A DNA stretch of 20,000 bases, taken from NCBI GenBank assembly GCA_010093995.1, contig ML992510.1, forward strand, positions 53,768-73,767, in the 5' to 3' direction. Below the pieces are notes generated by a model. It was not told the origin of the DNA. It was given only the letters and a program-made list of their open reading frames with translations, and made no database searches. Source of the stretch: Elsinoe ampelina (Eukaryota). This document shows, one piece after another, positions 1-20,000 of the stretch. The translations under genes were made by a program, and so were the position numbers. Position 1 is the stretch's first letter; each line of letters opens with the position of its first letter.

Positions 1-1186
1 CTCAGAAGACATGTGGTCCGCGCACAACCTCATCTCACCAGGCGACCGCCTACGCGCCAGTGCCATCCGACGCGTGACCACCCAAGCCGCCTCCACCGGC
101 TCTACGGTCTCGCAACGGGTCCACATAACCCTCACCATCGCCGTCACGTCCGTCGACTTCGACGCCCGCGCCTCGGAGCTGCACGTCTCCGGCCGCGTCG
201 CGAATGAGAATCCCCACGTCAAGCTGGGCCAGTTCCACACGCTGGATCTGGAGCTGAATCGGAATTTCACGCTCGAGAAGGAGGACGGGTGGGATAGTGT
301 TGCGCTGCAGACGTTGAGGGAGGCGTGTGATACGGAAAACAGGGCCGAGGTGTGGGCGGTGTTGATTGAGGAGGGATTGGCGAACTTGTGTGTGGTGAGC
401 GAGGGGACGACGGTGGTGAGGCAGACTGTGACGACGAGGATGGGGGATAAGACGTTGCCGGGGTATGGGAGTGCGGTGGAGAGGTTCTTTAGGAAGGTGC
501 TGGATACGTTGGTCCGGGCGGTGGATTTTGGGGAGTTGAAGCCTGTGTTGGTGGCGGGCGTGGGGTATACGGGGCAGAAGTTTTTGGCGTTTGTGAAGGA
601 TCAGGCGCAGAAGACGGGGGGAAAGGGGAGGAGTGGGGATGGGAAGGAACTGAGGGCGTTGTTGGACAAGATTGTGTTGGAGAGGGCGACGAACGCGAGT
701 CTGGGGGCGTTGAAGGAGGTGCTGGCCAGTCCGGGGGTGCAGAAGAGATTGAGTGATACACGGTTTGCGAGGGAGACGGGGTTGCTGGACAAGATGTTTG
801 AGAGGATGAGGAAGGATGATGGGAGGGTGGTCTATGGTCCGAACGAGGTGATCAAAGCTGTCGACGCTGGGGCCGTGGGGAGAGGAGGCGGAGTTCTGCT
901 CATCAGCGATGAGCTATTCCGCAGCTTAGAGGTTGGTGAGAGGAAGAAGTGGGTGTCCCTTGTGGACCGGGTGAAGGACAGAGAAGGCGGCGAGGTCCGC
1001 GTGCTGAGCAGTATGCACGAGAGCGGAAACCGACTCAAAGGTGTAGGTGGAGTAGCAGCGCTCCTGACCTTTCCCATTTTCGACGAAGACGAGCTGGAGG
1101 GTGGTGCTGTGCAAGGTCAAGGCGCGCAAGCCGATGGAGCGGCAGATGGCGATCAAGGGGATCCTCTGGGCGAAATTGAGATGTGA
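1..1186 (+). CDS. DOM34: Dom34/Pelota ribosome-rescue factor (eRF1 paralogue), 5' end lies outside the window
   Basis: The frame is open from position 2 (S-E-D-M-W-S-A-H-N-L-I), matching the Pelota EDMW.AYNLI motif, so the ATG at 11 is internal. Other Pelota motifs: LHVSGRVANENPHVKLGQFHTLDLELNRNFTLEKEDGWDS, IEEGLANLC, LSDTRFARE, YGPNEV, LLISDELFRS, VLSSMHESGNRLKGVGGVAALLTFP. Stop TGA at 1184-1186. Confidence 0.95.
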   Translation, partial: SEDMWSAHNLISPGDRLRASAIRRVTTQAASTGSTVSQRVHITLTIAVTSVDFDARASELHVSGRVANENPHVKLGQFHTLDLELNRNFTLEKEDGWDSVALQTLREACDTENRAEVWAVLIEEGLANLCVVSEGTTVVRQTVTTRMGDKTLPGYGSAVERFFRKVLDTLVRAVDFGELKPVLVAGVGYTGQKFLAFVKDQAQKTGGKGRSGDGKELRALLDKIVLERATNASLGALKEVLASPGVQKRLSDTRFARETGLLDKMFERMRKDDGRVVYGPNEVIKAVDAGAVGRGGGVLLISDELFRSLEVGERKKWVSLVDRVKDREGGEVRVLSSMHESGNRLKGVGGVAALLTFPIFDEDELEGGAVQGQGAQADGAADGDQGDPLGEIEM

Positions 1187-1720
1187 GGCGCATGCTTCGT
1201 CTTCCCATTCAGATGACGAGCGGCTGCGTTGCACGACCGAGATCGAATCTCTCTGCTTTGAGCTATAGACGAAGGACATAGCGACCAGCGTCGTTGGACG
1301 GACGGATCCGAAGCTGGGCAAAGGAGGTGAGGACTGATCTCCAAGCACATGGTGGGCCCTTACATGTCCTGCAGGTGGCGGTAAGAAGTTTTACCAGACC
1401 CCTTCCTCACGAAGTGCGAGTCGTCCCACGATTCGAGCTACCAAGCCAGGTCTACCCTCCCTAGTAGCTCTGGTGAGCGCAGCATGAAGCCCCTGAGGTC
1501 ACCACATGTCATGAAGCAACCTACGGCGGGTTGGTCAGATCTAGCTGGCATGATCAAGGCGAGACGATTGACGCTACAGCAAACTGGAACTGCCTTGCGG
1601 CAAATGCACTATGCCAATCAATACCAGGATGCGGTATGTGTCAGACTCCCATGAATGCAAACTATACATAACCCTTACCCTTTTTACCTTACCCGTCCCA
1701 TCGCCCTTCTCATCGGCGAC

Positions 1721-4700
1721 CTAGGCAAGCTGCGCCCTCAAACTATACACCTCAAAAGCCCTCACCTCCACCGCCACACTATTATCCCTGACTTCCAGCT
1801 CCTCCTCATCGTCCTCGAGCAAGTTACACCTGTACACCTTCTTCACCTTGACATCCCCAAACTTGACAATCCCCCTCGCCTGACCACCAAGACTATCATA
1901 GATCCTCAGCACGACACTCTTGCCCTTTCTCACCGGCAAACCAGTGTAGCCCTTGTCGTCCGCCAACCCACTGGAAGGCGCGACATCCTCGTCGTCTTCG
2001 GCGCGCTTGATGGTGTCCAGCACGAGACCTCGATCAGCGTCCGAGTTGGGGATGAGTTTGAAGCTCTTGTTCAACAACGACTCCACGCTGGCGATGTCGT
2101 GGTGCCCGCGGATCCGCGTGGGGAAATTGAATTCAAACCCGGCCTTGACTGTCTTTTCACCTAGAGGACCAACGTGAGGCATGATAGCCCAGCGGATCTT
2201 GTGCTTGCCCATATCCGCGTGGGCGTCGGGAGCCTTGGGGCTGCGGAGGAGGGAGAGACGCATGAGGCTGCCAGCCGTCGCGAAGCCGTATTTGGAGTCG
2301 TTGAGGACGGACACGCCGTAATTGGATTCGCTGAGGTCGGCGAATTTGTGGCAGCAGACTTCGAATTTGGCCATGTCCCAGGAGGTGTTGTAATGGGTTG
2401 GCCGTTCGATCAGGCCAAATTGGGTTTCGTAGGTGGCGGTTTGGGATCGGAGGGTGGTGGGGAACTCGACCTTGAGGAATTTCATGGTCTCGTGCCAGTC
2501 GACTTCTGCGGTGGTCTCGACGTAAGAGTTGATCAGTGAGTCGGGGTCGGATGGGTCGTGGTTGAGGGAGATTGTTGTGAAGATGCTGGATTTGTCGGAG
2601 ATGATGGTCTTGGTTTCCAACGACACACGAGTCGATGAGGAGACGACAATGCGGGATCTGGAGTTGGACTTGAGTTCCTGGCGAGACTCGAGATGGAAGA
2701 CTTCCACATCCCATGCTTGCCAGTACAGAGGCTTGTCGTCAAAGAGGACGAGCTGATTGGCTTTGGCACCCTTGGGCAGAACTTCTCGTGACGCCCGTTT
2801 GTCGTAGATGCTGGTGATGACACCATTGCTGACCTCCACGTCGAAAACTGTGTTGGAAAGTAGGAAGATGTCGGCACTCTTCTCCCGAATAGATGCACCC
2901 TTCGAGTAGGACACCGGCACTACCTTGGACACGCTCTGGCCAGACTCTGCCATGTAGAACTCTTCCTGGCCATCAGCAGTGACGGCTCGAGAAAGGTTTG
3001 AGCGGTCCCAGCCAAGGGTGTTGAGCGCGTATCCTTTATTGGCGATCTTTTCCTTGAAACCTAGCGCCGACAAGGCATCGTGTAAGAGCTTCTCCCCTGT
3101 CTTGAAGACTTGAGCATAGATCTGAGAGAGTCAGTACGTCGACTGTGCTAACATTCATTTCGACCGACCTCATCCGAATCATCGTAGCACATCTCGATAC
3201 AACTTCCCGGCAAGCAGTCGTGGAATTGGCAGAGTAGCACATTCTCCCACATCTCATCTATCTCCTTCTTTGGGTACTTATAACCAGTGACCATGCCCGT
3301 AACGGATTCTTGGATACTTGCAAGCGTCGCGTAGTACTCAATGTCGTGTAGTAGGATCTCGGAGTGTCTGTTGTTCCACTTGTTGTTCGCCTGCGTGGTG
3401 TAGGTACCTCTGTGCAATTCGAAGTAGAGTTCACCATACCAGGTGACAAAGGGCGTGCTCTCTTGCTTCTTCTCCAACGCGGCAAAGAATTCATCGACAG
3501 ACTCTGCGATCTTCACTCTCGGAAGGCGGCCGATCTTGTCTGCCATGCCTCTCTCGCGTCGTAGCTTCTCGATCTGTTCCCACGTCGGACCACCACCTCC
3601 ATCACCCTTGCCAAAAGGCAACAGAGATGTCGGATCCTGGTCAAGAGACTTGTGCTGTGTGACACTGCGAGTGACATCACCGAAATGTGCGTCGGCAGTG
3701 TAGGTCTCGCATGGTGCCATGTGGCACAACACTTGACTGCCATCTAGCGATACCCAGTTGAAGGTGGTGTGCGGGAAATTGTTGATGTTGTTCCAGCTCA
3801 GCTTTTGGGTGAAGAACCTGTTCATGCCTGCAAGGCGACAGAGCTGCGGTAATTGGGTAGAATAGCCAAAGGTGTCAGGCAGCCAGAATGTTTGACAGCG
3901 TTGGCCAAATCTGCTCTCGAAATAACGCTGACCGTACACGAATTGACGCACGAGTGATTCACCACCTGGCATATTCGTGTCGTGCTCGACCCAGCTGCCT
4001 CCGATGGGCTGGAAAGTACCCTCCTTGACCTTTGACTTGACTCTGTCGAAAGCCGACGGGTAAATCTTCTCCAGCCATTTCCACTGCTGTGCTTGTGAGG
4101 CGACAAAACGATGCTCTGGGTATCGCTCGAGCAGATCGCACTGGTTCATCCAGGATCTGACAACCTTTCGCTTCGTCTCCGCAAAAGGCCACAGCCAGCA
4201 AGTATCGATGTGGCAGTTTCCTATCGCATTTACAATAGCGGGGTTGTCATTGTCATACACCTTGGAAGAGTTGACGTTGCCAATGTATTCCTGAGCAATC
4301 TTTCTCCCAGCAACGATCGAATCATGGGTACCACCGCCAGCGATGAAAGTGTCTATGATCCTGTTGCAAACTTGCTGCGCCTCGTGCTCCTCCCATGAAT
4401 CTGTCGGGAACTCCCTGGCCGCATCACCGATGATCCAGAAGTCGATATACAGCTGCCGAGCTTCCAGATCAATAGCCACGATATCCGCAGTATGTAGCTG
4501 GAAGTAACGGTCCTCTTTTGGTGGCTGTATACTGTCACCACCAGCGGCGTTGCCGAACATTGCATTGCAGGCCATCTCGACATAGAAGACATGGGTCTTG
4601 CCATCGTAGTACTTCTTTGGGAGGATCCACTGGGCACGTTCTCCGTTACCAGTCAGACCCTGAACCGGATCTCCGTCTTCCGTCCATACTAGGCCCTCGT

Positions 4701-5181
4701 TACCAGCGTCCCAGTGGAACTCCAAGTGGTTCTTGTCTGTCAACTCTTTCGGAACGGTGAGGTGTACTCGGAACCAGTGGGTGGTCCAGCTCGGCCCGAA
4801 TGAGTCCCACTTCTTCGCGGGTTTGAAGTCGTGTGAGGTGGCCTCTTTGAAGGAAGGCCGCGATTGACCAGGGGGAGACCAGACCTCCAGCTTGACATGG
4901 GGGTCACCAGAGACTCGAGCTTCCTCGATCTTGCTGGAGGACGGTCAGGGGACGGTATCGGACTGCCATAGAATACCTACGCTACAAGGCCCTGCTCTCT
5001 GTATTGGCCGTTGTCTGTGAATTGGCGCAGTCTGCCTTGGTAGATGGAGTGTATCTGTCCATATTAGGCTCCAGCTCTAGCATGATCACTCTGGTCGATC
5101 TACCTGCTTTCCCTTTGGTCTCTCGGCCAGCTTGGGATAGCTAGCTGCGAGAGCTGACGTTGGCTTTGTTTCTCCGCCCAT
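1721..5181 (-). CDS. AMS1: Alpha-mannosidase, GH38 class 2C (Ams1/MAN2C1 type), ~1105 aa; exons 5181-5104, 5054-4981, 4933-3169, 3121-1721
   Basis: Motifs GNCHIDTCWLWP, GGSWVEHDTNMP, FWLPDTFGYS, FFTQKLSWN, GDGGGGP, GELYFELHRGTYT, QFHDCLPGS, RPTHYNTSWDMAKFEVCCH and LSLLRSPKAPD. Three short GT-AG introns (5103-5055, 4980-4934, 3168-3122) have CTAAT/CTGAC branch sites and join the ORF pieces in frame from MGGETKPTS. No signal peptide. Confidence 0.95.
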
Positions 5182-5502
5182 GTTTGCAGGATTGTATACA
5201 GAGGAAGAAGGCTGCCTCAAGGTGAGGAGGGGTGTTTCGAAGCTCTGCCCTGTTCAGGTCCATCTCAAGTTACCCCAGGTGACGCCGTTAGCTCCGCACT
5301 GGCGCTGCACTTCTGACTAGCCTAAACCAACTTAGCGTCGATCCATATTGGTCGGAGTTCGGGAGTCCTGCATGACGGAGATCGCTACTGAGAGCCTCGG
5401 TTGATGGCCCCGCATCATCACCCTTGCACCATGAAGCTGACGATCCGAAAGTGACGGGAATGACATATTTCTTCCCTTGCACTTTGAGGATATGGCCAGA
5501 AC

Positions 5503-6629
5503 ATGGCCTATCTGTCGCCTACTTCCGCCGTAAGTCGCCCACGTAGCGCAATCAAGACGCGATTTCTAACACTGATCAGGCCGCTCTAGCACGATTGCGC
5601 GCGTTCGTACCTCCGCCGACAAACTATCACTCTTTACCGATCACAAGACGAGCCGCAGTGCTGATCCTCTTATTCGCTGACCGAAGCGGAGGACTGCGAG
5701 TTGTGCTCACAATCCGGAGTACGAAGCTAAGAAACTATGCTGGACAGGCCGCACTCCCAGGTGGAAAGGCCGACTCGTTAGAAGAATCACCATGGCAAAC
5801 CGCTCGACGAGAGGCTTGGGAGGAGATTGGCCTGCCGATAGGAGAAGGCGAAATCATGAAAGGTTGGAAAGTGGAAAGACTCGGCGAATTGCCATGCAAC
5901 CTGGCCGTGACAGAACTGGGAGTCCGACCATGCGTGGGTTACCTCTCGCCCTCAGTGCCCAGTGCGGGAGATGCAACGAATGCATCGAGGAAGAGCAACG
6001 ACTCGCCGGACCCGGTGAAGGACCTGCTCCCGACTCTGGATGCAAAAGAGGTTGCCGCAGTGTTCACCGCGCCATTTCACAATTTCCTCAGGAAAGAGGA
6101 TGAAGATCCGAAAGTCAGGAGAAAAGTCCCTGGCAAATGGTACAACGGCACCTGGGTTAGTTGGCACGAAGAGGCTTGGAGAATGCATCAGTTCTTCGTG
6201 CCGAAAGGACTCGTATTCCGAAGCGAAGAGGAGCAGACGGGCGACGAAGACAATCCAGCAATTGGGGATACAAATGCATCTGTATCCGGTGCTGCAAATG
6301 GCAATGTTGACGGTAGTCAGTCGCGCCAAGGAAAGGGACCAAGTCTCAGAAACAAGGTCGTGGAGGAAGCGCGAACAAAAGAGAAAGAGGCTGCTCCGGC
6401 AGTGGACCCTCTGGACGAAGCGAGATACAAGGTCTTTGGCATGACCGCCAGGATACTGGTTGATGCTGCGAGAGTAGCATACGGCGAAGAGCCTGATTAC
6501 GAGCACAACAGCCACTTTGGAGACGAGGATATGATTACTCGACTCATGAAGATGGGACGATTGGCTCCGATCAAGAAGGAAGGAGAACGACTGACGAGAG
6601 ATGTAATGTCTGCTGCTGCCAAGATGTGA
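5503..6629 (+). CDS. PCD1: Nudix CoA diphosphatase (Pcd1/NUDT7 family), ~358 aa; exons 5503-5529, 5580-6629
   Basis: AAVLILL, then the CoA-Nudix motif LTIRSTKLRNYAGQAALPGG, then the Nudix box GGKADSLEESPWQTARREAWEEIG; VFGMTARIL near the C-terminus. Intron 5530-5579 (GTAAGT..CTAAC..CAG) gives MAYLSPTSA/AALARLRAF. The C-terminal AKM is PTS1-like. Confidence 0.9.
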
Positions 6630-7087
6630 GGCGAGCATGTGACAGGATCGCCCTGCACAAGCAGATCTTTGTCGTTGTCTCAAACATTTCTTGTACATAC
6701 ATACTTGAAGCATACATCAATTCCAGTGGTGAATGGCCCCCACAGATATTGTCATTGACTTTGTGAACAAGCCCACATCTCGACGTGAAAGTCGCACAAA
6801 TTCAGGCGCGGCCCATTCAGCTGGTGACCCTGAGGAACTCAGCCCCGCTGTGTCTCTATCACACACCTCTTGAAACACTTTGCTGACCCCAACTCTTGAT
6901 TTGTGTCCCTTCTCTTCCACAACGAGGACGGCCTTCCGAGCGACCATACTCCGAGCTTGACCAATCGGTTCTGCCTCTCGGGCTCCTTTTGCGATATTAC
7001 CAACCTGCTCTTCCTACCACAGTACCTAGAGAAGCTCTACCCACCGTCCAAAAGCAGGCAGCTGCGAGCTGCGAACAAGCCGAGATC

Positions 7088-8682
7088 ATGTCTTGTAAGT
7101 CACTCTGTGCCTGGGCAATACGAACAGTCTGCCCGACAGAAGCTCCATGGCAATCGCGACTGTGCACAAAGGCATCCCGGTCTTTCTTCGTTCAATGCTT
7201 CGAGTCTGCTCCTTTGCACTCTTGCACGCATTGCAACCCAATCCCTGATATATCCTCAACTCCAATTCCTATACACCTAGACTGACCATCATGCCAGTCG
7301 CGAATATGATGAGCAAGCTGCAGGGCCAGCCTGACAGCTACGACAAAAAGTATGTACCGATTGCATTTCTACAAAACAGTCAAGCATAAGAGCTGGGAGA
7401 TCATCGGACTGTATTAGGCCAGGACTAACCCTGCACAGATCGAAATACAGGTTCGGCAAGACACTAGGTGCAGGCACCTACGGTATCGTCAGAGAGGCCG
7501 AATCTCCGCACGGCAAGGTCGCGGTAAAGATCATCCTCAAGAAGAATGTCAAGGGCAATGATCAGATGGTCTACGATGAGCTCGAGATGCTGCAGAAGCT
7601 ACGACACACACACATTGTCAAATTCTACGACTGGTTTGAATCGAGAGACAAGTACTATATTGTAACCCAGCTGGCTACTGGAGGAGAATTGTTCGACCGC
7701 ATTTGTGAGAAGGGTCGCTTCACCGAGAAGGATGCTTCGGGTACGATCAAGCAAGTACTGGAGGCTGTAGAGTACCTACACAAGAACGACGTTGTGCACA
7801 GAGGTACGATTGCGCTCAGTGAGGATAGCGCACACCAGGCGGACTGACTCGACCAGATCTGAAACCAGAGAACCTTCTCTACCTCACAAAGGCCGAGGAC
7901 TCATCGCTGGTATTAGCAGACTTCGGCATTGCAAAGCATCTCGACTCTCCTGATGGTATGCTCAAGACGATGGCTGGCTCATTCGGATATGCAGCTCCAG
8001 AGATTATGCTGAAGCAAGGTCATGGCAAACCTGTGGATATGTGGTCGATGGGGGTTATTACCTACACACTACTCTGCGGGTACTCACCATTCCGAAGCGA
8101 GAATCTCCCAGATCTGATCGATGAGACCAAGCACGGCCGCGTCATCTTCCATGAGAGGTATTGGAAGGATGTCAGCAAAGAAGGCAAGGAATTCATCCTG
8201 ACGCTACTACAACCTGAGGCGGGTAGCAGAGCGACTGCGTCGGTGAGTAGTGCTTATGTGACCGGAAAGACTTTGCTGATCTCGGATAGCAAGCACTCAA
8301 GCACCCTTGGATCGCCGGCAAGGTCGCAGGCGACCACAACTTAATTCCCGAGATCAAGGCATACCTGGCAAAGGCTCGCCTAAAGCGAGGTGTGGAGATG
8401 GTCAAGCTCGCCAACCGTATCGAGTCCCTCAAGATGCAGGAGGACGACGAAGAGGAAGCGCAGTCGCCACATCCAGACATTCCGAAAGGCGCCGACGCAC
8501 TTGCCGGCCGGACCGACAGCAAGAGTGTCAAGTCAACGCAGAGCTCTGGGTCTGGCAAATCAAGATTGAGCAAGGCTGCGAAGAGTGCGATATTCCGCGA
8601 GGTCGTGCTGGCAAAGGTGAGGGAGATGAAGGCTGAGAACGAGAAGACGCAAGTAGCTAGTGGCACGATGAAGCCGACATAG
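7088..8682 (+). CDS. cmkA: Ca2+/calmodulin-dependent protein kinase (CmkA/Cmk1 type), ~400 aa; exons 7088-7094, 7298-7349, 7439-7803, 7857-8242, 8290-8682
   Basis: The spliced product starts [40 protein letters not shown] and contains [22 protein letters not shown] (split by an intron), [27 protein letters not shown] and a basic amphipathic calmodulin-binding segment [16 protein letters not shown]. All four introns are GT-AG with CT(A/G)A(C/T) branch sites. Confidence 0.93.
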
Positions 8683-9236
8683 CAGATGGCGAAGTGATGT
8701 GTATTCGATCAGGGTAGTATGGCGCTGGTGTGTTCCTCGACAGCTATCACCGAAAGCTGCAGTAGCGAGGAGCTCAGTACTTCTTATTCAGCATCGCGAC
8801 CTAGGATGAAAGACCACGGATCGTCGTAGGTCCAAGAATGAAATGATACGTCAATTGCATCACACTCAATGACCCTGATGTGCTTTGGCTAAGTTCAACC
8901 AAGCATCCGGAAAAATAGACATGCCATTTTCCCAAGCCAGCGCCCCCTCCCCTCCCGAGGTCGTGCCCCCGCTTTGCTGGTCTCGGCAAACCGGTGGGAG
9001 CTGACCTGGCCCCGAACATCTCTCCTCTTTGGCACTAAACCTGTGATGCCACCTTCCGAACAAATTATGACATGTGCTCTTCGGGCTATCATCCCCCGGT
9101 AGCGTGATGGCTACAGACCTTGGCCAAGCAGGCAGGTAATCCGAAAACGATGGCATGAATGTGATTTAATGGAGCGAGTCGCTCTCTCGTGAGTAGATGC
9201 GGTGAGATCCTTTTACGCTCTTCCCGCATTTCTGTC

Positions 9237-10831
9237 ATGGTTAATAATAGACTCTTATCCCTTCTGGGTGCCATCGCGACTCCTGCCTTCGCGGCATGGA
9301 TCGTACCAGGTGGCAGATGGTACGACACGGCCAACAACCTCGTCAATGCCCACGCTGGCGGCATCACACTGGACCCAGCATCAGGTCGCTACTTCTGGTA
9401 CGGAGAATACAAGATCCAAGGTCAGGTTGAAGGTGGTGGCGTCAAAGCGTACAGCTCGACTGATCTCGCGACATGGAAAGACGAAGGCATGGCTCTCCAG
9501 GCCATCGAAGGACATCCTTACCTCGACCCAAAGATGATCATTCAGCGACCCAAGGTTGTCTACAGCGACGTCAGCAAGGAGTATCAGATGTGGTGGCATG
9601 CCGACAATTCCACTTACGGTCTTCTCCTACAAGGATATGCAAAGTCTTCCACTCCTGCCGGACCGTTCGAGTTTGTCAGCGCAACTGCTCCACTAGGAAA
9701 CTGGAGCCAGGACTTTGGCATCTTTGAGGACTACAAGGACGGTAAGGTGTATGCTCTGTACTCGAACGGCGACCGACGCGAGGGGAGGGATGTGTACTTG
9801 ACTTCGTACAATGAGGACGTTACAGCCCTGGATCAGGTTGTCCATCGCTTCGACAAGTATGATCTCGAAGCGCCTACAATCATTCAGACGGAGCAGAGCT
9901 ACTATGCTTTGATGTCACACAAGACTGGCTACAGGCCAAACAATGTGGTAGCTTTCCGTGCGGACAATTTGGCTGGGCCGTGGTCGCAGCCTTTCATCAT
10001 TAACCCCTTGAATACTCGAGGCTTCAACTCGCAATCCGGCTTCTCCTTGCGAATCAATGGCACCGAAAAGACAACATATTTGTACGTCGGCGACCAGTGG
10101 GACTCCAACTCGCTCTGGGAGAGCCGCTACATCTGGTTGCCAATGGAAATCGACGACGAGAAGAAGACCCTTGACCTGGTCTGGCATGATGTGTATGACC
10201 TGAACATGTAAGCATGCCCTTACTTCAGAACGTCCAGGCTGTACCCTACTGACCTGCTGTAGCGAGACCGGCGTCGTCACACCAATCGAAGGCACCCCAT
10301 ACTACGCCAAAGACGCAATCACCGCCGGCAACGCCTTCAAGCAAGAAGCCGTAAGCCCCCCTCCCCTCCCACCCCACCATCTTCCTCCATCCTAACTCCC
10401 CCCAGAACTTCGCCGCAGACAAGACCATCCTGACCGGCATCTACGGCAGCACCAGCACCGCCACCTTCACCATCCAAGGCGTCGGCGGTCCACAATGGGT
10501 CTCCTTCTACTACCAAAACACCGACGACATGGGCTTCGGGGACCAGCCAGGCGGCACGCCTGACCGCATCGGAGGGACATGGCAGCTGCGCCGTATCGCA
10601 AGTGTGGTCGTCAATGGGAACACGGAAAGTGTGCAGACGCTGTATCAGAGGGATACCCATAAGGGGATCATTTTGTCGACGCCGTTGTTGTTGGATCTTA
10701 GGGAGGGGAGCAATGAGATCACGGTCGGGGGATTGTGGAATGGGTTTGATTATAAGGGGGCGGATTTGGAGAGGGTGGTGGTTTATCCGCCTGAGGGGAG
10801 GGGAGGGGGGAATAGTACGAGGCTGCAGTAG
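9237..10831 (+). CDS. Secreted GH43 (subfamily 24-like) beta-1,3-galactanase with C-terminal CBM35-like module, ~494 aa; exons 9237-10207, 10263-10350, 10406-10831
   Basis: Signal peptide MVNNRLLSLLGAIATPAFA. Motifs NAHAGG, YFWYGE, YSSTDLATW, QRPKV, QDFGIF, LEAP, SHKTGYRPN, NSQ, YVGDQW and RYIWLP are typical of GH43_24. Two GT-AG introns (10208-10262, 10351-10405) restore the frame into a beta-sandwich-like tail (GSNEITVGG..GADLERVVVY). Confidence 0.88.
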
Positions 10832-10977
10832 TGCTGTAGAACCAATGGTCAGAGGTCATAATCGCAAGTCTTGACAAGGGTGCAGCCTTGCACTTCAAGG
10901 CATATCCAATCCAAAACATTGAATCATCCCGAAAGCCGCAGATGTTTGCCCAGATTTGTCACGTGATGCCATACCCG

Positions 10978-11236
10978 TGTTGACTTGTGTGGGGGAGGAA
11001 AAAGGATTAATTACTGCCTAAACTACCAAAATAAGGTAGATTGTAACTACATAAATACTTAACCTAGTATACTAAAAGATAGCTAAATTAAAAGAACTCC
11101 TTAATAGTAGCAGATTAAGACAATAATTATCTAATTTAATTATAGATTAGTAAAATAGTAAGATAGTGTTTAGTTTAACCTTAGGATAAACTAAATTAGA
11201 GTCTTCTTAGCGCTCTAGCTTATGCCTTAGTTAATA
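10978..11236 (-). repeat. Putative 3' LTR of the Copia element (~259 bp)
   Basis: Begins TGTTGAC at 10978 and ends GTTAATA at 11236. GTTAATA is the RIP product of GTCAACA, the exact inverted complement of TGTTGAC. On the minus strand it is preceded by a PPT-like AAAGGGGT(G) at 11237-11245. The second LTR copy is not in the window. Confidence 0.6.
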
Positions 11237-13049
11237 TACCCCTTTACTAAGTAGCTATAACTCTATAATAGCTAGTTAGTAGACTACTAACTTAAAGAAT
11301 AGCTATTATAAGAAGGCCTTATACCTCCTAGGTAGTAATAATTTAGTAAATCTATTAGCTAGTATATCTACTAATAGTATTTATATAACTAAGATAGGAC
11401 TAGATAGATCTCTAGCTTAATTAATCTCTTGTTTTAGCTAATAATAATAAATATTAATATAGTAAAGATATATATTTAGCTTCTTAATTAAAGTAGTAAT
11501 AAGACTAATAGTTTACTAATTATTATACTAAATACTAACATATTTAAGGGGATAGATAGAGGCTATTAGCCTTCTCTACTATATAGCTTACTTAGTAGTC
11601 TCTATAAGAGTAAGTAGCTTAGCCTCTATAGTTAATATTATAACTATTAGTTACTTTATAGCCTTCTAATTAATTAATCCTTAAAACATCTTAAAGAGAT
11701 AGCCTTAAAGGCTCTTCCTTATTAGGTAGCTACTAAAGCTAGTATCTAATAAAGCTTAGAAGATTAGTAGTAGTATTAAGCTATTAAAGGTAAAAGCTAA
11801 ATCTTTAGTTTTATAGAGATATTAGATTACTCTATTTACTATTCTCTAGTAAGTTAGTAATAGATTTATTAGATACTCTAATAATCTAGAAGTAGTAAAG
11901 GCTATATTAGGCCTTATAATAACTACTATAAAGTTAATAGATCTAACCTTTTACTAATATAGGTAGATCTCTTATAGTAATACTTAGCCTTTATAAGGTT
12001 AAAGTATCTTAATTAGTAGTAGTATTAACACTAGCCTTATTAGTTCTATAATAAACTTACTATATATCTATTATATATACTAGGCTTAGCTAAGCTAGAG
12101 TTTCTTTATTAGTCTATCCCTTATAACTTAGATAGCTAGAAACTAGCTTAGATCTCTAAGTACCTTTATCTTAGATTTAGTATAGAGAGCTATAATAATA
12201 GTATTAGCTTTCTCTTTATACTTCTTAAGGTATATAATAGTAATATTATCTACAAAGAAGAAGATTATTACATTAGGAATTAGCTAGAGGTAAGGAGCCT
12301 TAGGGGCCTAAGTAAAACTAATACTCTTTAGAGTAGTAGTAAATTTAGTATACTAGAGAGCTAGAGCTTATTTAAGACTATATAAGACCTTATTAAGTAA
12401 GAGAATTATATCTAATAGAGTAATACTAGGATAGTCCTTTATAAGATCCTCTATAACTAGCTTAAATCTAGTAGAGATAGTATAGTATATAGTCTTATTA
12501 ATAGGACTATTAATATAGGTATTAATAATATCTATCTAGATAGCCTCTATATCTTTATAAGTAAGTAATACTATAAGTATTCTAAAGATCTTAGCTACTA
12601 GAGTTACTATATAAGTCTTATATAGACTCTTACTTTATACTTTATAACCTCTCCTTTATTATTAACTTTATAGATAAACATCTATATTAAAGAGATAGGC
12701 TTATTAGTAGCTTAAGCTACTAGTATAATAGTCTATATATATTTTAAGTATAAAGTAAGTAATTTAACCTTTATAGCCTCTTAAAATTGCTTCTTATAAG
12801 GATAAGCCTTAAGTTCTTTAATATTAGCTAGTAGTAGTAGAAGATTGTCTCTTAATTCTAGCTTAGGCTAAGTTAGTATTATTAATAGATAAGTATTAAA
12901 GGCTTAGTAATATCTAAGAGCATTATTAGTTTATATAAGAGTAGAAATATATACTTACCTTCTTAGTTTTCTTATTCTTCTTATTATAAGAATATATTTA
13001 GGAAAAAGATTAGCTAACCTTATAGTAATTCTTTAAGGGGTTTACTTAG
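10978..13049 (-). mobile_element. Ty1/Copia LTR retrotransposon relic, 3' part (RT, RNase H, PPT, 3' LTR), interrupted at 13049 by the Gypsy insertion
   Basis: Minus-strand motifs as read, with the de-RIP interpretation in brackets: PISLI*MFIYK ~12660-12700; KVLYSLK*A [KALYGLKQA] ~12360-12392; IFFFVDNI [FVDD] ~12242-12265; LDTSF..RKSL*GY [SDASF] ~11700-11750; *KAIK*LIVIILTIEAKLLTL [WKATKQ..V..STTEAELLAL] ~11605-11668; INIYYY*LKQE [VDIHHHWLKQE] ~11425-11458; ILANRFTKLL [MLADGFTK] ~11335-11366. Confidence 0.88.
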
Positions 13050-13236
13050 TGTTAAAGCCTTATATTAAAGCTACGTATATCGTAATATAGAGAACGCCTA
13101 TCTAACTAAACAGTCTATTAGTAGTAGAACTAATTACTGTCGAGTCCTAGGCATAAGCGCCGCGTAGAATATCTAGGTATATTATATAAGCGGGACTAGC
13201 CGCTACTAAGTGCCGCTCTAATACTATGCCCTTATA
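13050..13236 (-). repeat. 3' LTR of the Gypsy element (187 bp)
   Basis: Runs TGTTAAAGCC...GCCCTTATA. Aligns without gaps to 19713-19899 with 20 mismatches by manual count, all transitions. Confidence 0.95.
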
Positions 13237-13256
13237 ATTGCCTTCTCCTCTAGGGG
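13237..13256 (-). promoter_or_regulatory. Polypurine tract (PPT) of the Gypsy element
   Basis: The minus strand reads AGAGGAGAAGGCAAT immediately before the 3' LTR. Confidence 0.75.
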
Positions 13257-13722
13257 AGCTGTCCTTAGCTCCTTACTAGTATATAAATGTATAATTATAA
13301 ACGAAAGTAATATAGGCCTTAAGGCATTTTCTATTATATGTTATACATAAACTATATACTACTTAGTTATTGTAGTCCCGACAATCTAGGTCTAAGGAGG
13401 TATTTATCTAGTCGCTATAGTATTAAAGCTAATTAGTAGCAACAATATTACTTTTCCTTAAAATTCCTAGTAGTACTATAGGGGATATACGCTCTACGCT
13501 AGTAGCTATAATAAAGATATAGTATACTAGAGGTTAGTATATATAACCTTACTATTGCCCCTTACTTTCTCTCTTCTATATATTAAAACACATTTTTATT
13601 TTCTTAGACCTCTACTTTAATATAGCGCTTCTTACTCGACTTGTACTTACTTTATAATATCTACTCCTTTATATAATATATATAGCTCTAGCTCTTATTA
13701 GCCTTCTATAACTCTCTTAGGT

Positions 13723-14394
13723 ATGCCTTATATAACCCCTACTAGCGTAGGTCCTACGCTAGCTTCTCTCTACTATAGGTATACCGTAGGCGTTAATAAG
13801 GGTAAGTATAGTCTATTTAAATACAATTCGTAACTAATACGTAGTAGAATTTAACTACATTAGTAGGAATTTTAGCACCCTTACTAAGAAGAAGTATACT
13901 TACTATATTAAGAGTTACTACACCTATAAGCTACTTCTACCTTACCTATATAGTAACTATATAGCTATATATAACGTATTTAACTCGCTTACGAAGATTA
14001 ATAATAACAATAACAACGTACCTACGAACTATATAACTCTTAATAAGACCCTTAAGGACTTTAAGAATTTGTTAAAGGCATACTATACTAATAAGAACAA
14101 GGTTACTAGTAAGGCATCTATACCTCGTACTAGCCGTATAGGTGCCGTATATAGCGCACTTAACTAGGAGAAGGTAGTAGAGCTTTAGAAGATTAGGAGG
14201 ACCTTAACTACCTTAGTAGTAGTCGGATAAGAGGTATATTAGCTATGTTACTTATATGTCTATCTTATAACTAATATGCTTAGATAGTGTATAATACTAG
14301 TAGGTCGACTAAGCACTCCGATAGGATTATAGCTAGAGGGGAGTTTTTTAAGAATAAGAATAAGATTAAGAAGAATAATAAGAATAGAAAGTAG
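13723..14394 (+). pseudogene. Antisense accessory gene relic inside the Gypsy element; predicted exons 13723-13801, 13845-14233, 14284-14394 (~192 aa); Cys-cluster-like after de-RIP
   Basis: ATG at 13723. Intron 13802-13844 reads GTAAGT..CTAAT..TAG and intron 14234-14283 reads GTATAT[GTATGT]..CTAAT..TAG. There are 106 consecutive stop-free codons (13847-14164) in stop-saturated RIP DNA. The three internal stops (14165, 14186, 14228) are all revertible to CAG/CAA. Confidence 0.65.
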
Positions 14395-14619
14395 TAGGGT
14401 AGTTATATACGAGCTAGGTATATATCTCTAGCGCTATACCTATAAGGTCTTATATATAGTATAGAAGTTTATAGCGTTTAGAATAATACCTATATAGCTA
14501 GTATAAGCGTAGTACTTTATTAAAATGTATTACTCTAGATAAGGAGTCTATTCTTTAACTAATTTATATACTTATATAATCTAACTACTTATATGCTCTA
14601 TAATCTATATCTTCTATAA

Positions 14620-17600
14620 CTCTTCTTAGGCGCTCTCGACTATAACTTATATATAGTAATTAGCTCTCTTATATTTATATAATTCTCTTTAGGTTCCTAG
14701 CTATTAAACTTAATAGGCTAGTCCTTCTACTTTACTAAGTAGAATACCTTACCCTTTATAGTTCTCTTACCTAGGATTTTCTCTACTATCTACTTATCTA
14801 CTTTATCTACGAGAGGTATACTCTCTTTTAGCTCTTTACTAGCTCTACCTATCTATAGTTTAAGAAGAGATATATAAAAGATATTATAGATATAATACTA
14901 ACTCGGTAAGGCTAGGTAATACACCTATAATCTAATTATGTTAAGTATACGAAATAGGCTAAGGAATTGTAGTTCTATCTTCTTCTTTAGTATAGGTAGC
15001 TATAAGTTCTTAGCTAAGAGTAGTACTAAGTTATCTACGCTATATACTCTTAGTATATACTTCTTATTATAGTACTTAGCCTAGTAGATAGAAGCCTTTT
15101 TCTATTACTCTACTAGCTTAGTATATATATCTTATAAGCGTTATACTAACTCTAATACTACTAGCACTCTTCCCCCTAAAGTCTTATTCTAAGACTTAAT
15201 AGCTATTACCTCTAACTTAGGATAGTAGCTATATATTATCTAGAAGAGGCTTATATATAGCGTAGTATAAACGCTATTATTGCTTACAAATTCCACTTAA
15301 GATAGATATTTAGCCTAGTTGTTCTATAGTTCTATATAGTAGTACCTTAGGTACTATTCTAATATCTAGTTCTACTACTTAGTCTAACTATCTATCTATA
15401 GGTCGAAGGCTATACTAAGCCTATACTTTATATATGTCTTATAATAGAAATTGCTCTAGAACTAGCTAGTAAAGACTAATCCTCGATTACTTATAATACT
15501 CCTTAGAACTCTATAGTAGCGAATTATATAGTCTTATATAATCTCTATAAGATCTAAGAAAGTATACTTCTTAGTAGTTAGAATATATAGTAACATCTTA
15601 GTGTAATAGTCTATAATTACTAGTACTATATTATAGATACTATTACCTTACTTACTTAGTAGTAGGTTAGTAATAAAATCTATTATAATTTCTTACTATA
15701 GGTAGTCTAGTATAGGTAGCGTATATAGCTCGCTATAGAGGTAGTAGTAGTACACCTTATACTTCTAGTAAACTTAGTATAACTATACGTAGTTATTAAT
15801 ATCTTTCCTTATAGTTACCTAGAAGTACTTTCTTAAGAGAAGCTTAAGTATCTTATCTCTACTAAAGTAACTAGCCTAATTACTATTATAGTATATACGT
15901 AGTACCTACGCCTTTAGGGCACTATTATTTAGGATAACTAGTGTATTATAGTAGAATAAGAGGTTACTCTATAGATTCTATAGCGTCTTACTCTTGTCTC
16001 TACTACTTCCCGCTTATAAATGTAGCTTTATAATCTTAGAGTCTTATCTCTATAGTAGCTCTATAACTAATAATAGATTAGTAGAGAGATCTTTAAAGGG
16101 ATCCTCTCTTATAGTTACTATAACTACGACTCGCTAGGTTATTAGAAGCCCCTAGGAGTTCTTAGAAGAAAAGTTACTACTATATAGCGTATAGATAGCC
16201 TAGGCCTAGCCTAGAGTAGCCTCGTATATAGCGTAAATATGTCTAACTAGCGGAGTAGCTTCCTTAGCGTTAGTAGTCTAGTCCTATATATAAAGCTTAT
16301 TCTAAAGAGTAGAAAGGAGATATAATATCTCTTACTCTTTCGCTACGTAGTTAGAGCGCCTTAAAGGCGTGTTAGCTAGGTTTCTTATGCCTAGCTAATA
16401 CTCTATTATAAAGTTAAAGGTAGCAAGGAAAGTAGCCTAGTAAGCTTATTAGCTATTTAGCTATTTTAGCTTTATAAATCCTCGGAGGTTGTTATAGTTA
16501 GTAAGCACTTAAATCGCATATATAGCACCTTTAAGGTAGTATTACTATTACTTAAAAGTATATACAATTACTAGAAGCTCTTAGTTATAAGTCTTATAGT
16601 TATATTTAGTAGAGATTATCTTTCTTAACTAGAAGGTAATAGAGTACTAAGCACTATTAAATAGCTATAATAATATTGCTACTACTATAAACTTTAATAT
16701 ATTACTTTTAATACGTAAAGGTAGTATAGAATTATAGTAGCGAAGAATAGAGACATATGTAAAAGTATCTCTAATATTCTTAAATGCCTACTATTCGCTT
16801 ATACCCTATACGAAAGAGCTATACTTACGACCTTTAACTAAGCCTTTAAGGAGGCTAGAGAGGAGAGTAATAATCTTAGAGTAGTGCTATATAAAGCGCT
16901 AATAGAAGTTTATAAAGCTAGTAAACTACTAGACTTTATAATAGCTTTTTAGCCTTAGCTAGTTCTTAATTATAATTACTTTACTTAGATCTATTAAGAC
17001 GCCTATAGTAGAGATAATATAGCTAAGGAATTCTACCTCCTTAGTAAAGAATTTATACTTCTTAAGGCTAGTATATAAAGTAAACTTCTATAGTCTTATA
17101 AGAATCTTACATATATAGTATATATAGTTCTTCCTTAAGTTACTATAGATAAGAATATTATTAAGGTAGACAACATAGATAGTATCTACTAGCCCCTCTA
17201 GTATATAATTAATATATACTTAGAAGGTAGCTAAGGCATTAGTTAACCTAAAGAGTATAACTAAATACTTAAAGTAGCTATAGTATATATAGAATATAGT
17301 CTTCTACTCGTTGCTATACCTAATAGAGATCCTATAGTAGACATCCTTAAGATTTAACTTCGAAAACTACTAGGCTTACCTAAGCTAATTAAGTATCTCG
17401 CTAATAAGTAGAAGTAGGTAGCGATTCTTAATAGTTACCTCGTTTAAGCCTTAATAATTTATATATAAGCGTAGACTACTATCTTTCTTAGGTATAAATA
17501 AGATAGAAGTACCTACCTTACTTATAGAGTACCTAATCTACCTATTTAATTAAGTAGTCTCGAGATAGTCCTTAAGTACTTTAAGCTCCTTAACTAAGAG

Positions 17601-18400
17601 ATTGTATAAGGGCTAGAATAGAGGTCTCTTACCTAGCTCTAGCTTAATTATATACTCTATACCTAGTAGGTATAGTAGGTTAGTAATGTCCTTATATATA
17701 AAGATATTAAAGAACTCTACGAACTCTAGCGAAAAAGCTAGGTTATCTATAGCGTAAGTACTCTCCTTAGATAAAGTCTATACTATAGTATATGTTAAGA
17801 ATATAGCTCTCTCTAGATAATTAGGCTATAAAGTTATATAACTCTAAGTTATATAATGCTAAGGCCTAGAGATTTATAGCTGTTCTTTCTTCTAGTAGAT
17901 AGACTCCTTAATTAATTAACTCGTCTATTACCTAATTAGTGTACAATTAGTTCTATACAATATTCTACCCTTAAACGTGCCTTCCGCTTAATAGTATACA
18001 CTCTTAGCTTATTCTTAAGGTCCTTTATAAAGTCTTCTAGTTCGCGTAAGTAAACTATATATAAGAAGTAGCTATATAACTAGTTATCTATAGTGCTATT
18101 TATAATTATATATTATCTTCTTCGCTATAGGCGCCCTAAGATAACTAGAGGGCCTAGTTCTAAGTCTATAGTATAGAAGAGGCTAATTGTCTCCCTAAGG
18201 TTACTATAGGAGTCTACTAGACATATACGAAGCTAGTATATACTATAGTAGAATCTAGCTTACTCTATAAAGGAAGATATACTTAGATACTAAGTATGCT
18301 TAACCCTTAGTAAATTATAACGTAGAGTAAATACCTATAATATAAGATTAACTTCTATATAGTTATCTATAAGAAACGTGTAGCCTTTACGCTCTATAGG
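14620..18400 (-). pseudogene. Gypsy pol relic: protease (~18330-18390), RT (~16950-17660), RNase H (~16350-16790), integrase (~14900-15930), chromodomain (~14646-14798)
   Basis: Protease: FLIDNYIEVNLI. RT: KDSSLRLYINY*GLNEVTIKNRYLLLLI [LCVDYRGLN..NRYPLP], VVYLNNILIYS [YLDD] and EFLSYIIS..GVLIDLSKV. RNase H: SNILKFIVVAIL [SDASKFAV], *ELLVIVYTFK***YYLKG and VLTNYNNLR [TDHNNL]. Integrase: HHCC zinc finger, IDFITNL, RGLVFTS and F..*IDS*TK [QTDGQTE]. Chromodomain: VEKILGKR...FYLVK*KD*PIKFNS*EPKEN. Confidence 0.92.
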
Positions 18401-19690
18401 CGCTATAATAGCGCTATTATAGGGCGGCGATAGGTAAGTATTAATTAGAAGAGGGGAAAGGCTTAGTTACGCTCCTTAGCTAAGCCCTTAGAGTTTCCTA
18501 ACTTAGAGTTATTAGACTTATCTATAGTAGTAACCTTATACACTATATAAGACTCGTTGTCCTTCTATAGGTGCTTCGACCTATACTCTAGCTTAATATA
18601 ACTAGTTTTACTATAGCTATAGTACTTAGTATTCTTCTTCTACTTATTAGAAGAACTCTCTTACTCTCTAGCCTATTTAGTAGGTAGATCGGCGGCATTA
18701 CGCTTGCGCTAAGTAGGCTAGCTACTACTAGGCTAATAGCGATATTCCCCTTAGGATCTACTATAACTACTACGCTTATATAGGTAGTTAGGTTTATTCT
18801 TATATATAGTACACTTACTACTAGTATAGTCCGTTAACTCGATATAGAAGCCTAGGGACACTAATTCTTAATAGATAGCTAGGATAGTATAGTACTTAAT
18901 AATAGTAGTATATAGCGTAGGCTATAGCTTTATAAGGAGGTAGTATACTCTCTACTCTTTAGAGTAGAGCGCTAGTTACTCCTCTAGAGTAGTAAGTTCC
19001 GAGGTAAAAGCCTAAATAGACTAGCCCTTATATTGTTAAGCGCCCTTATATACGAGAGTTATATGTACTTTATAGTTAATAGAATTATTAACTACATTCT
19101 ACACGAACTAGCGGAATTGCTTCTATATATAGCCTTCTAGGCTATCTACGTAGTAGTAGTAGTACTATATCTTATCTAGCTTACCTATAAGAAATATAAC
19201 TCTATATAGCACCTTCTACTAGTTAGTAGAGTAAGCCTTAGAGGCTAGAGTAAAGATAACCTCGAGATTCTTTAGGAAGGATCTTACCTCTTTTAGAGTC
19301 TTACTCTAGTAGAGATAAGGTTTCCTTAGTTAAGGTTATTTAGAGAATAGTCTTATAAATAGTCTACTACTGCTATATATACTCTATATACTAGCGTTGC
19401 TTAATATATACTCTATAGAGGTATATAAGCTATAACCGAAGCTAGTAGAGGTATATTCTATATTATATATATAATATATTTACTTAATCTCTTCCTCGAG
19501 GCTCTAAGCCTTAAGTTCTAGCTCTAAGCACTTATACTTAGTATATAGGCGTAGTAGCTACTTCTCGAGAGTCTCCTTAACCTCTAGGGAAGTCTACTTA
19601 ATAGAGTCTATCTTAGTAACATTAATAACATAAGGTACTAGTGTCTCGCTAGTAGAGTTCTAGTTATCTATAGAGTCTAATAGATTATAA
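18400..19690 (-). pseudogene. Probable gag region of the Gypsy element (heavily RIP-degraded)
   Basis: Called by position between the 5' LTR and the protease motif. A possible degraded zinc-knuckle lies near 18850-18920 but cannot be read confidently. Confidence 0.55.
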
Positions 19691-19712
19691 CTATAGGTAG
19701 AGTAATTAGAAC

Positions 19713-19899
19713 TATTAAAGCCTTATATTAAAGCTATATATGTCGTAATATAGAGAATACCTATCTAACTAAATAGTCCGTTAGTAGTAGAACTAATTAC
19801 TATCGAGTCCTAGGCGTAAGCGCTATATAGAATATCTAGGTGTATTACGTAAGCGGGACTAGCCGCTACTAAGTGCCGCCCTAATGCTATGCCCTTATA
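19713..19899 (-). repeat. 5' LTR of the Gypsy element (187 bp)
   Basis: Runs TATTAAAGCC (TG->TA by RIP)...GCCCTTATA and is followed by the TSD CTTAG. Direct repeat of 13050-13236. Confidence 0.95.
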
Positions 19900-20000
19900 C
19901 TTAGGCTAAGCTTTAACTACCCCTTTAGTCTAAACTTCTATCTTATCTTTCTTAGCTTTATCTTCTCCTATTAGTAGAGGAGATAGCTATACTACTATAG
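19900..20000 (-). mobile_element. Probable continuation of the interrupted Copia element (integrase-RT linker side)
   Basis: RIP-type sequence resumes after the TSD. The assignment follows from nesting logic only; no diagnostic motif is seen in these 100 bp. Confidence 0.5.

Follow-up and report, generated by a model that had tools for sequence, protein, structure and literature searches.

We analysed a 20,000-nt stretch of Elsinoe ampelina DNA (contig ML992510.1 of assembly GCA_010093995.1, positions 53,768 to 73,767 of the forward strand; hereafter the window, in whose own numbering positions are given), of which 13050-19899 on the minus strand is a complete, 6850-nt Ty3/gypsy chromovirus insertion degraded by repeat-induced point mutation (RIP). 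Between the chromodomain of its pol gene and its 3' long terminal repeat (LTR) lies a spacer of about 1.4 kb (13237-14645), and within this spacer, on the plus strand and opposite to gag-pol, a frame of 109 codons at 13838-14164 is free of stops. The evidence that this part of the plus strand was formerly coding is moderate. We tentatively read the frame, with a probability of roughly 0.4, as the RIP-killed relic of an accessory open reading frame (aORF) antisense to gag-pol, a kind of gene already known at this place in other LTR retrotransposons. As the element is complete, bounded by LTRs and flanked by a 5-bp target duplication, the 1.4-kb spacer moved with it as one unit.

The plus-strand open frame

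Read from stop to stop, the frame is the longest of 2059 open runs in the AT-rich block that begins at about 11000 and bears the signature of RIP, the runner-up having 81 codons. Among 1000 dinucleotide-preserving shuffles of 11000-20000, a single one contained a run of at least 109 codons (median 63, 99th percentile 96). An earlier, sequence-only reading of the window had included this run in a spliced antisense gene at 13723-14394 and had given it 106 codons; the run is indeed present, the smaller count being the part that starts at 13847. The same reading frame continues through 14165-14233 with stops at 14165, 14186 and 14228, and the original frame probably ran on to the last of these (14228-14230).

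Beyond its length, the frame differs from chance open runs in composition. TA dinucleotides occur 16 times on codon phase 1-2, 14 times on phase 2-3 and 39 times across the junction between codons, and all 16 TAN codons are TAY. The lack of TAR codons follows from the frame being open, but openness does not explain the excess of TA at the codon junction over phase 2-3, and of 1444 chance open runs with 60 codons or more, drawn from 1500 shuffles, only 12 reached a phase asymmetry this strong. The codon junction is also the TA-richest phase in several windows of pol. We further scored the frame with a codon model that contrasts in-frame with out-of-frame codons of the element's own RIP-mutated pol, stops being omitted. 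The frame obtained +23.9 bits, or 0.219 bits per codon, the per-codon value being reached by 1 of the 1444 chance runs and the total by none of them, and open runs in wrong frames of the real sequence mostly scored below zero. No tandem repeat covers 13838-14164. Furthermore, the plus-strand purine fraction is 0.549 over 13838-14394, compared with 0.44-0.485 in the rest of the element, which is purine-rich on the minus strand; the skew flips over this block. The frame sits within the LTRs of the element, after pol and before the 3' LTR, and it is open on the strand opposite to gag-pol beyond what chance yields. This is the setting of an antisense aORF, albeit an incomplete one with no assigned start.

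A review lists antisense aORFs at this place, after pol and before the 3' LTR, for the plant elements Grande1, RIRE2, Retand and PvRetro13, and for Boty of the fungi Botrytis cinerea and Sclerotinia sclerotiorum (PMC7264820). By its account most copies of a family contain them and they are conserved like other proteins of the element, and a regulatory role or antisense-RNA effects have been suggested for them, their function being unknown (PMC7264820). The Boty gene brtn is mentioned in two Botrytis papers (PMC8365987, PMC4227169), one of which names a form 'brtn-106' (PMC4227169). The window element resembles Boty in being a fungal Ty3/gypsy retrotransposon with a chromodomain and with an extra antisense frame, encoding a small product, between pol and the 3' LTR; it differs in that the copy here is dead through RIP, and the two are likened by position and orientation rather than by sequence. 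The host genome is also much more GC-rich than that of Botrytis. With Grande1, RIRE2, Retand and PvRetro13 the frame shares its position and orientation in the element; those are plant elements of other lineages, and the likeness to them is one of placement. In the order of reverse transcriptase (RT), RNase H, integrase and chromodomain, as well as in its short LTRs, a run like a polypurine tract (PPT) and a 5-bp duplication, the element is like other chromoviruses. An additional open reading frame, of unstated strand, is drawn for some fungal chromoviruses.

Under the aORF reading, the spacer of this chromovirus lineage would have housed an accessory gene oriented against gag-pol. While the ancestral element was still active, a promoter belonging to this gene and lying within the element would have driven its transcription, on the strand opposite to that of the genomic RNA. 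Its product would have been small, of about 110-130 residues, and before RIP probably rich in Asp, Glu and Lys and in His, Tyr and Arg. By analogy with the aORFs described elsewhere, its role would most likely have been to modulate the element's own expression or transposition; the copy in the window would be dead, like gag and pol. A pyrimidine-rich tract upstream of the frame (13540-13780 on the plus strand; purine fraction 0.32-0.36 in 120-nt windows) might, as a conjecture, have served as a promoter of the CT-box type. If the frame is a real relic, a second fungal lineage joins the few LTR retrotransposons with an antisense accessory gene, the function of which is still unknown in both plants and fungi, and the less mutated copies in a second organism would give a testable protein.

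Relatives and other copies of the spacer

Neither the open frame nor the six frames of the spacer gave a Pfam match at E<=10, apart from two rows at chance level, and BLAST of the frame against the rest of the window found no significant similarity. A protein atlas returned a weak lead, in which the top match scored 0.92 (127 of 256 features shared), 53% of its cluster carrying Caulimovir_coat_dom, and Retrotrans_gag scored 0.84; 4 to 10 in 100 shuffled proteins also reach 0.9. This gag/coat lead was not confirmed, an alignment of the frame to the element's own gag being equalled by 147 of 1000 shuffles.

For pol, the closest proteins were P0001 and P0002. The better match, P0001, comprises 1252 residues from a 6945-nt metagenome contig and aligns at E 3e-158 with 34% identity to the RIP-mutated query; P0002 is encoded on a contig of 6747 nt. 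A metagenome scan added 80 more distant pol-related loci, at most 60% identical to P0001, and scans of viral and prokaryote genomes found no related loci. The sequence-only reading had raised the prospect of homologues lying antisense between pol and the 3' LTR of other chromoviruses; tBLASTn found none like the spacer in the 80 loci (best E 0.065), and blastn of these loci against the spacer gave only short AT-rich matches. An LTR pair was recognized in 11 of the 80 loci, with gaps of 89-1142 nt between pol and LTR.

One intact, circularly permuted metagenome chromovirus contig, L015, which is 60% identical to P0001, holds between its pol and gag an antisense frame that stays open for 293 codons (L015:3351-4232, minus strand), with six Cys at 3666-3788 spaced C-x2-C-x16-C-x9-C-x2-C-x6-C. 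This pattern is one of four stop-free relaxed six-Cys matches in the six frames of the 80 loci, and it lies in DNA of 60-64% GC where every one of the six frames is open. Pfam returned nothing for the L015 frame at E<=10, and it has no relatives among the 80 loci; a protein search, swamped by low-complexity words, gave no matches among 8000 candidates; and comparison with the antisense gene proposed for the window found no similarity, 135 of 300 shuffles reaching the score. Under a codon model built from the gag-pol of L015 all antisense frames were negative, in a test biased by the purine-rich sense strand. The six-Cys frame of L015 is a curiosity, not support for a gene in the window. We also compared sequences with a RIP-aware matrix learned from the pol alignments, which found no link for the accessory frame; the matrix could not link the two gag genes either (window against L015, 44.6 compared with 38 +/- 5 for shuffles), so nothing can be read into that negative, and comparing proteins across such a distance yields no information.

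Other copies of the spacer were sought, at a likeness of at least 80%, among Logan contigs from two sets: X1, a DNA run from the same organism, and X3, from a second one. These contigs cover the spacer in 30 of 30 bins in X1 and in 28 of 30 in X3, and they carry a letter other than that of the window at 13858 in 4 (X1) and 12 (X3) contigs and at 14340 in 10 and 14, respectively, the differences between copies being almost all transitions. The spacer is multi-copy in two organisms, and not an insertion private to this copy, which is one of the outcomes that the sequence-only reading had named as fatal to its gene. Most other X1 copies read G at 14230, and the consensus of loose contig ends in X3 has TAG at 14228-14230 and keeps neighbouring TpG, and so looks little mutated. 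No RNA run is listed as containing the segment, and all that two RNA-labelled runs yielded was a pair of partial low-complexity matches at 14349-14386 or no match. Silence would be expected of RIP-mutated copies in any case.

Contigs of both organisms also end loosely at 13403/13404, and depth peaks at 13468-13538, which suggests that the spacer is a mosaic in which the block 13403-13609 is repeated more often than its neighbours. Separately, the CpG dinucleotides of this copy at 13637-8, 14146-7, 14224-5 and 14637-8 are TpA in most other copies, so RIP here also removes CpG, in two steps.

The three-exon model and rival explanations

The sequence-only reading had joined the open frame to a first exon with its own ATG (13723-13801) and to a third exon (14284-14394) through plus-strand introns of 43 nt (13802-13844) and 50 nt (14234-14283). 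Parts of this description are accurate: the ATG at 13723 exists, and the gap between chromodomain and 3' LTR measures about 1.4 kb, the Chromo match ending at 14646 and the LTR beginning at 13236. Nothing else marks the ATG, and the open run that holds the first exon (13702-13830) scores -8.1 bits under the RIP-coding codon model, that is, as non-coding. Both introns show donor, branch and acceptor motifs (GTAAGT...CTAAT...TAG and GTATAT...CTAAT...TAG), at no more than chance frequency: the 9-kb RIP block holds 82 combinations of a GTRNKN donor, a CTRAY branch and a YAG acceptor spanning 40-90 nt on its plus strand, or about 9 per kb, and 66 on its minus strand. Splicing does keep a single frame, of 579 nt and ending in TAG at 14392-14394, but that frame is interrupted by three internal stops (TAG at 14165, TAG at 14186 and TAA at 14228). 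One of the three is the 'x' of a proposed helical segment, ELxKIRRTL, and the charged tail proposed for the third exon is a plain (TAAGAA)6.3 tandem repeat at 14349-14386 that reads as Lys and Asn. Because the stop at 14228-14230 sits two codons before the proposed second donor, passage of the second exon into the second intron is disfavoured; the position of the stop fits an unspliced frame ending at 14230, and its occurrence in other copies, including a less mutated one, speaks against such passage as well.

The six TAY codons from which a Gal4-type cluster had been reconstructed, by reverting TGY to TAY changes, are in place at 13771, 13780, 13856, 13895, 13904 and 13925. The cluster itself does not hold: the product has no Cys, the first loop is x10 where x6 is canonical, and the canonical spacing is absent. 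Likewise the Zn_clus profile (PF00172) found no match at E<=10 in the 109-residue frame or in the six frames of 13255-14646, at the low power that Pfam has on RIP-mutated sequence. Upon closer inspection the product contains 20 Tyr, 15 of them within residues 3-69, so the six Cys-like positions were picked from many and numerous spacings could fit. When residues 1-133 of the product were shuffled 20000 times, spacing like that of the sequence-only reading arose in 905 shuffles and canonical Gal4 spacing in 163, and comparable Tyr patterns occur three times elsewhere in the six frames of the RIP block, all with internal stops. We also aligned the pol of the window with six intact proteins and the pol of L015. 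Its Tyr residues face Tyr 166, His 120, Arg 94, Phe 57 and Cys 46 times in 695 alignments; in the opposite direction, 56% of 82 Cys positions in the intact relatives are Tyr in the window. Among the variant places listed from contigs of other copies, 40 of 433, none falls at the second base of the six TAY codons.

With the six Tyr taken for former Cys, the likeness to Gal4-type Zn2Cys6 domains is a loose one, in which Y-x2-Y occurs twice, a basic run precedes the fourth position and Y-x6-Y comes last, and it is offset by the missing Cys and profile match, by the x10 first loop, and by the location of two of the six positions in a non-coding-looking first exon joined on by an unsupported intron. 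A C2H2-like reading (C-x2-C-x12-H-x4-H; residues 44, 47, 60 and 65 of the spliced model) fits equally well, and such patterns evidently arise easily. Literature searches, which were not designed to exclude such a case, brought up no retrotransposon described as encoding a Zn2Cys6 protein. Since Tyr codons, splice-like GTA and TAG motifs and CTAAT boxes are all common in RIP-mutated DNA, gene models built there need shuffle controls. Of the proposed third gene of the element, what stands is that the segment belongs to the element and that its frame is longer and more codon-like than chance; the first exon, both introns, the third exon and the Zn2Cys6 cluster are not supported by the evidence.

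Several findings also weigh against the frame at 13838-14164 being the relic of an aORF. Its codon score rests mostly on AAC (10 times), AAG (13) and AAT (7), and it contains no Met and no assignable start codon, although RIP turns ATG into ATA and the missing Met is thus not decisive. RIP is as heavy in the spacer as in pol, and a real gene in the spacer would be expected to be broken by it; at the stop rate of pol, 109 codons stay open with a probability of about 9e-5. At pol positions aligned to intact relatives, Gln has become a stop in 38% of 273 and Trp in 78% of 106, and the ancestral protein would have had to contain almost no Gln or Trp. HMMER gave no homologue at E<=0.001 among 1.84 billion representatives, and a word-index search gave a single candidate, none at E<=10, both with low power for a RIP-mutated query. 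In nine of the eleven pol-to-LTR gaps, which were read directly and all belong to distant relatives, there is no similar antisense frame, the longest antisense open frames (55-96 codons) being unrelated to that of the window. Summed contig depth, which is not a copy number, is over 13610-14603 about one tenth of that of pol and LTR in X1 and closer to the pol and LTR level in X3, a hint that the spacer is not in all members of the family; and one X1 contig joins 13967 to 14150, which is a 182-nt out-of-frame deletion inside the open frame.

Finally, very many windows were scanned, so that an open frame of 1-in-1000 rarity is expected somewhere by chance, and about one in 1000 such 9-kb RIP blocks yields a run this long. 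The frame might accordingly be a product of chance in a non-coding, A-rich 3' spacer, where RIP made TA-rich DNA and one frame escaped stops, its Lys and Asn codons reflecting low-complexity purine-rich DNA. We consider this unlikely, if a serious competitor. The dominance of AAC, AAG and AAT, including runs of six Asn and three Lys, would fit it, as would the plain repeat that produces the neighbouring signal of the proposed third exon, the want of a Met, homologue or Pfam match, and the expectation that RIP should have broken a real gene as it did pol. Against it stand the TA phase locking and the codon score, which are independent of openness and were equalled by 12, 1 and 0 of the 1444 chance runs (asymmetry, per-codon score and total, respectively), the lack of a tandem repeat inside 13838-14164, and the purine skew that flips over just the 13838-14394 block. 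The codon make-up and the purine skew would also suit an inverted fragment of foreign coding DNA, for instance from the gag of a retroelement or from a host gene, that never acted as a gene of the element and was captured into the spacer of one subfamily before that subfamily spread; purine-rich DNA with a pol-like codon make-up is what retroelement coding sequence in the opposite orientation would bring. The weak atlas features for coat and gag families, the roughly tenfold fall in summed depth from the end of pol in X1, and the loose ends at 13403/13404 in both organisms, which suggest a mosaic spacer, point the same way. Yet the element's own gag is not significantly similar, its score falling within reach of 147 in 1000 shuffles, nothing significant was found elsewhere in the window or in the 80 loci (best tblastn E 0.065), Pfam gag models have no match at E<=10, and the atlas score of 0.9 is attained by 4 to 10 in 100 shuffled proteins; we hold a captured fragment to be somewhat less probable again than a chance frame. 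Far below both lies the idea that fungal chromoviruses of one lineage, found in two species or more, have conserved between pol and the 3' LTR an antisense gene for a Cys-cluster nucleic-acid-binding regulator, of which the L015 frame and the Tyr pattern of the window would be diverged remnants: it is highly improbable. Least probable of all is the three-exon, two-intron gene at 13723-14394 with a Gal4-type Zn2Cys6 cluster hidden by TGY to TAY changes. Its motifs and frame arithmetic are as stated, TGY to TAY change is real here, as the Cys positions of pol attest, and the distant, intact L015 has its six-Cys antisense frame between pol and LTR/gag. These points are outweighed by a spacing that is not canonical and is common in shuffles, by Tyr patterns of the same kind elsewhere in the block, by the rarity with which Tyr in pol faces Cys, by a non-coding first exon and chance-level intron motifs, by three in-frame stops of which that at 14228 recurs in other copies and in the less mutated copy of the second organism, by a third exon whose tail is a microsatellite, and by an L015 frame that is GC-rich, sits where all six frames are open, and has neither Pfam match nor homologues nor similarity to the window model.

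The element and its surroundings

The chromovirus assignment rests on the order RT, RNase H, integrase and C-terminal chromodomain, together with LTRs and a target duplication. A 188-nt direct repeat (13052-13239 and 19715-19902) is 89% identical, and alignment together with direct reading set the boundaries of the two minus-strand LTRs, of 187 nt each, at 13050-13236 (3') and 19713-19899 (5'). The same five bases, CTAAG in minus-strand reading, flank both LTRs as a target-site duplication at 13045-13049 on the 3' side and 19900-19904 on the 5' side. A purine run on the minus strand at 13241-13250, just upstream of the 3' LTR, is by inference the PPT.

Pol occupies 14646-17495, and its Pfam domains, found with stops read through as X, all lie in one minus-strand frame: RVT_1 (17013-17495), RNase H in two models (about 16527-16793), the integrase zinc domain (15780-15926), SH3_Tf2-1 (14859-15029) and Chromo (14646-14789). 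The proteins closest to it carry the same domains. The pol frame is interrupted by 78 stops in 950 codons, with a longest open run of 43 codons. The heavily RIP-mutated gag/protease region follows at 17496-19712 on the minus strand, where the frame preference of the codon model places part of it in another frame than pol; it gave no Pfam match, no gag domain having survived RIP, and includes a run of 81 open codons at 18591-18833. The model favours a frame shifted by two in the blocks that begin at 19640, 19313 and 18659, which points to a gag/pol frameshift or to indels.

The border between the element's block and the DNA before it is sharp. Positions 1-10900 are gene-dense fungal DNA of 50-62% GC, encoding an eRF1-family protein, a NUDIX protein and a GH43 enzyme, together with a protein kinase and a GH38 alpha-mannosidase that are each split, the latter between two frames, probably by an intron. 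From about 11000, GC falls to 23-35%. TpA/ApT is 1.89-2.23 in the element and 0.60 in 1-10900, and (CpA+TpG)/(ApC+GpT) is 0.13-0.22 compared with 1.23, so that the element shows, relative to the neighbouring genes, the TpA excess and the loss of CpA and TpG that RIP leaves; for the spacer (13237-14645) the two indices are 1.89 and 0.21. The RIP block contains TA 1927 times and TAG 575 times, and only 25 ATG per strand in its 9 kb.

Adjoining the element, 11000-13044 is a second RIP-mutated repeat, without a Pfam match, in which summed contig depth over 12900-13041 is very high in the same organism (X1) and low in the second organism. Within this repeat, 12320-12649 shows strong periodicity of TA over the codon phases (14/43/23) and may be a dead coding frame.

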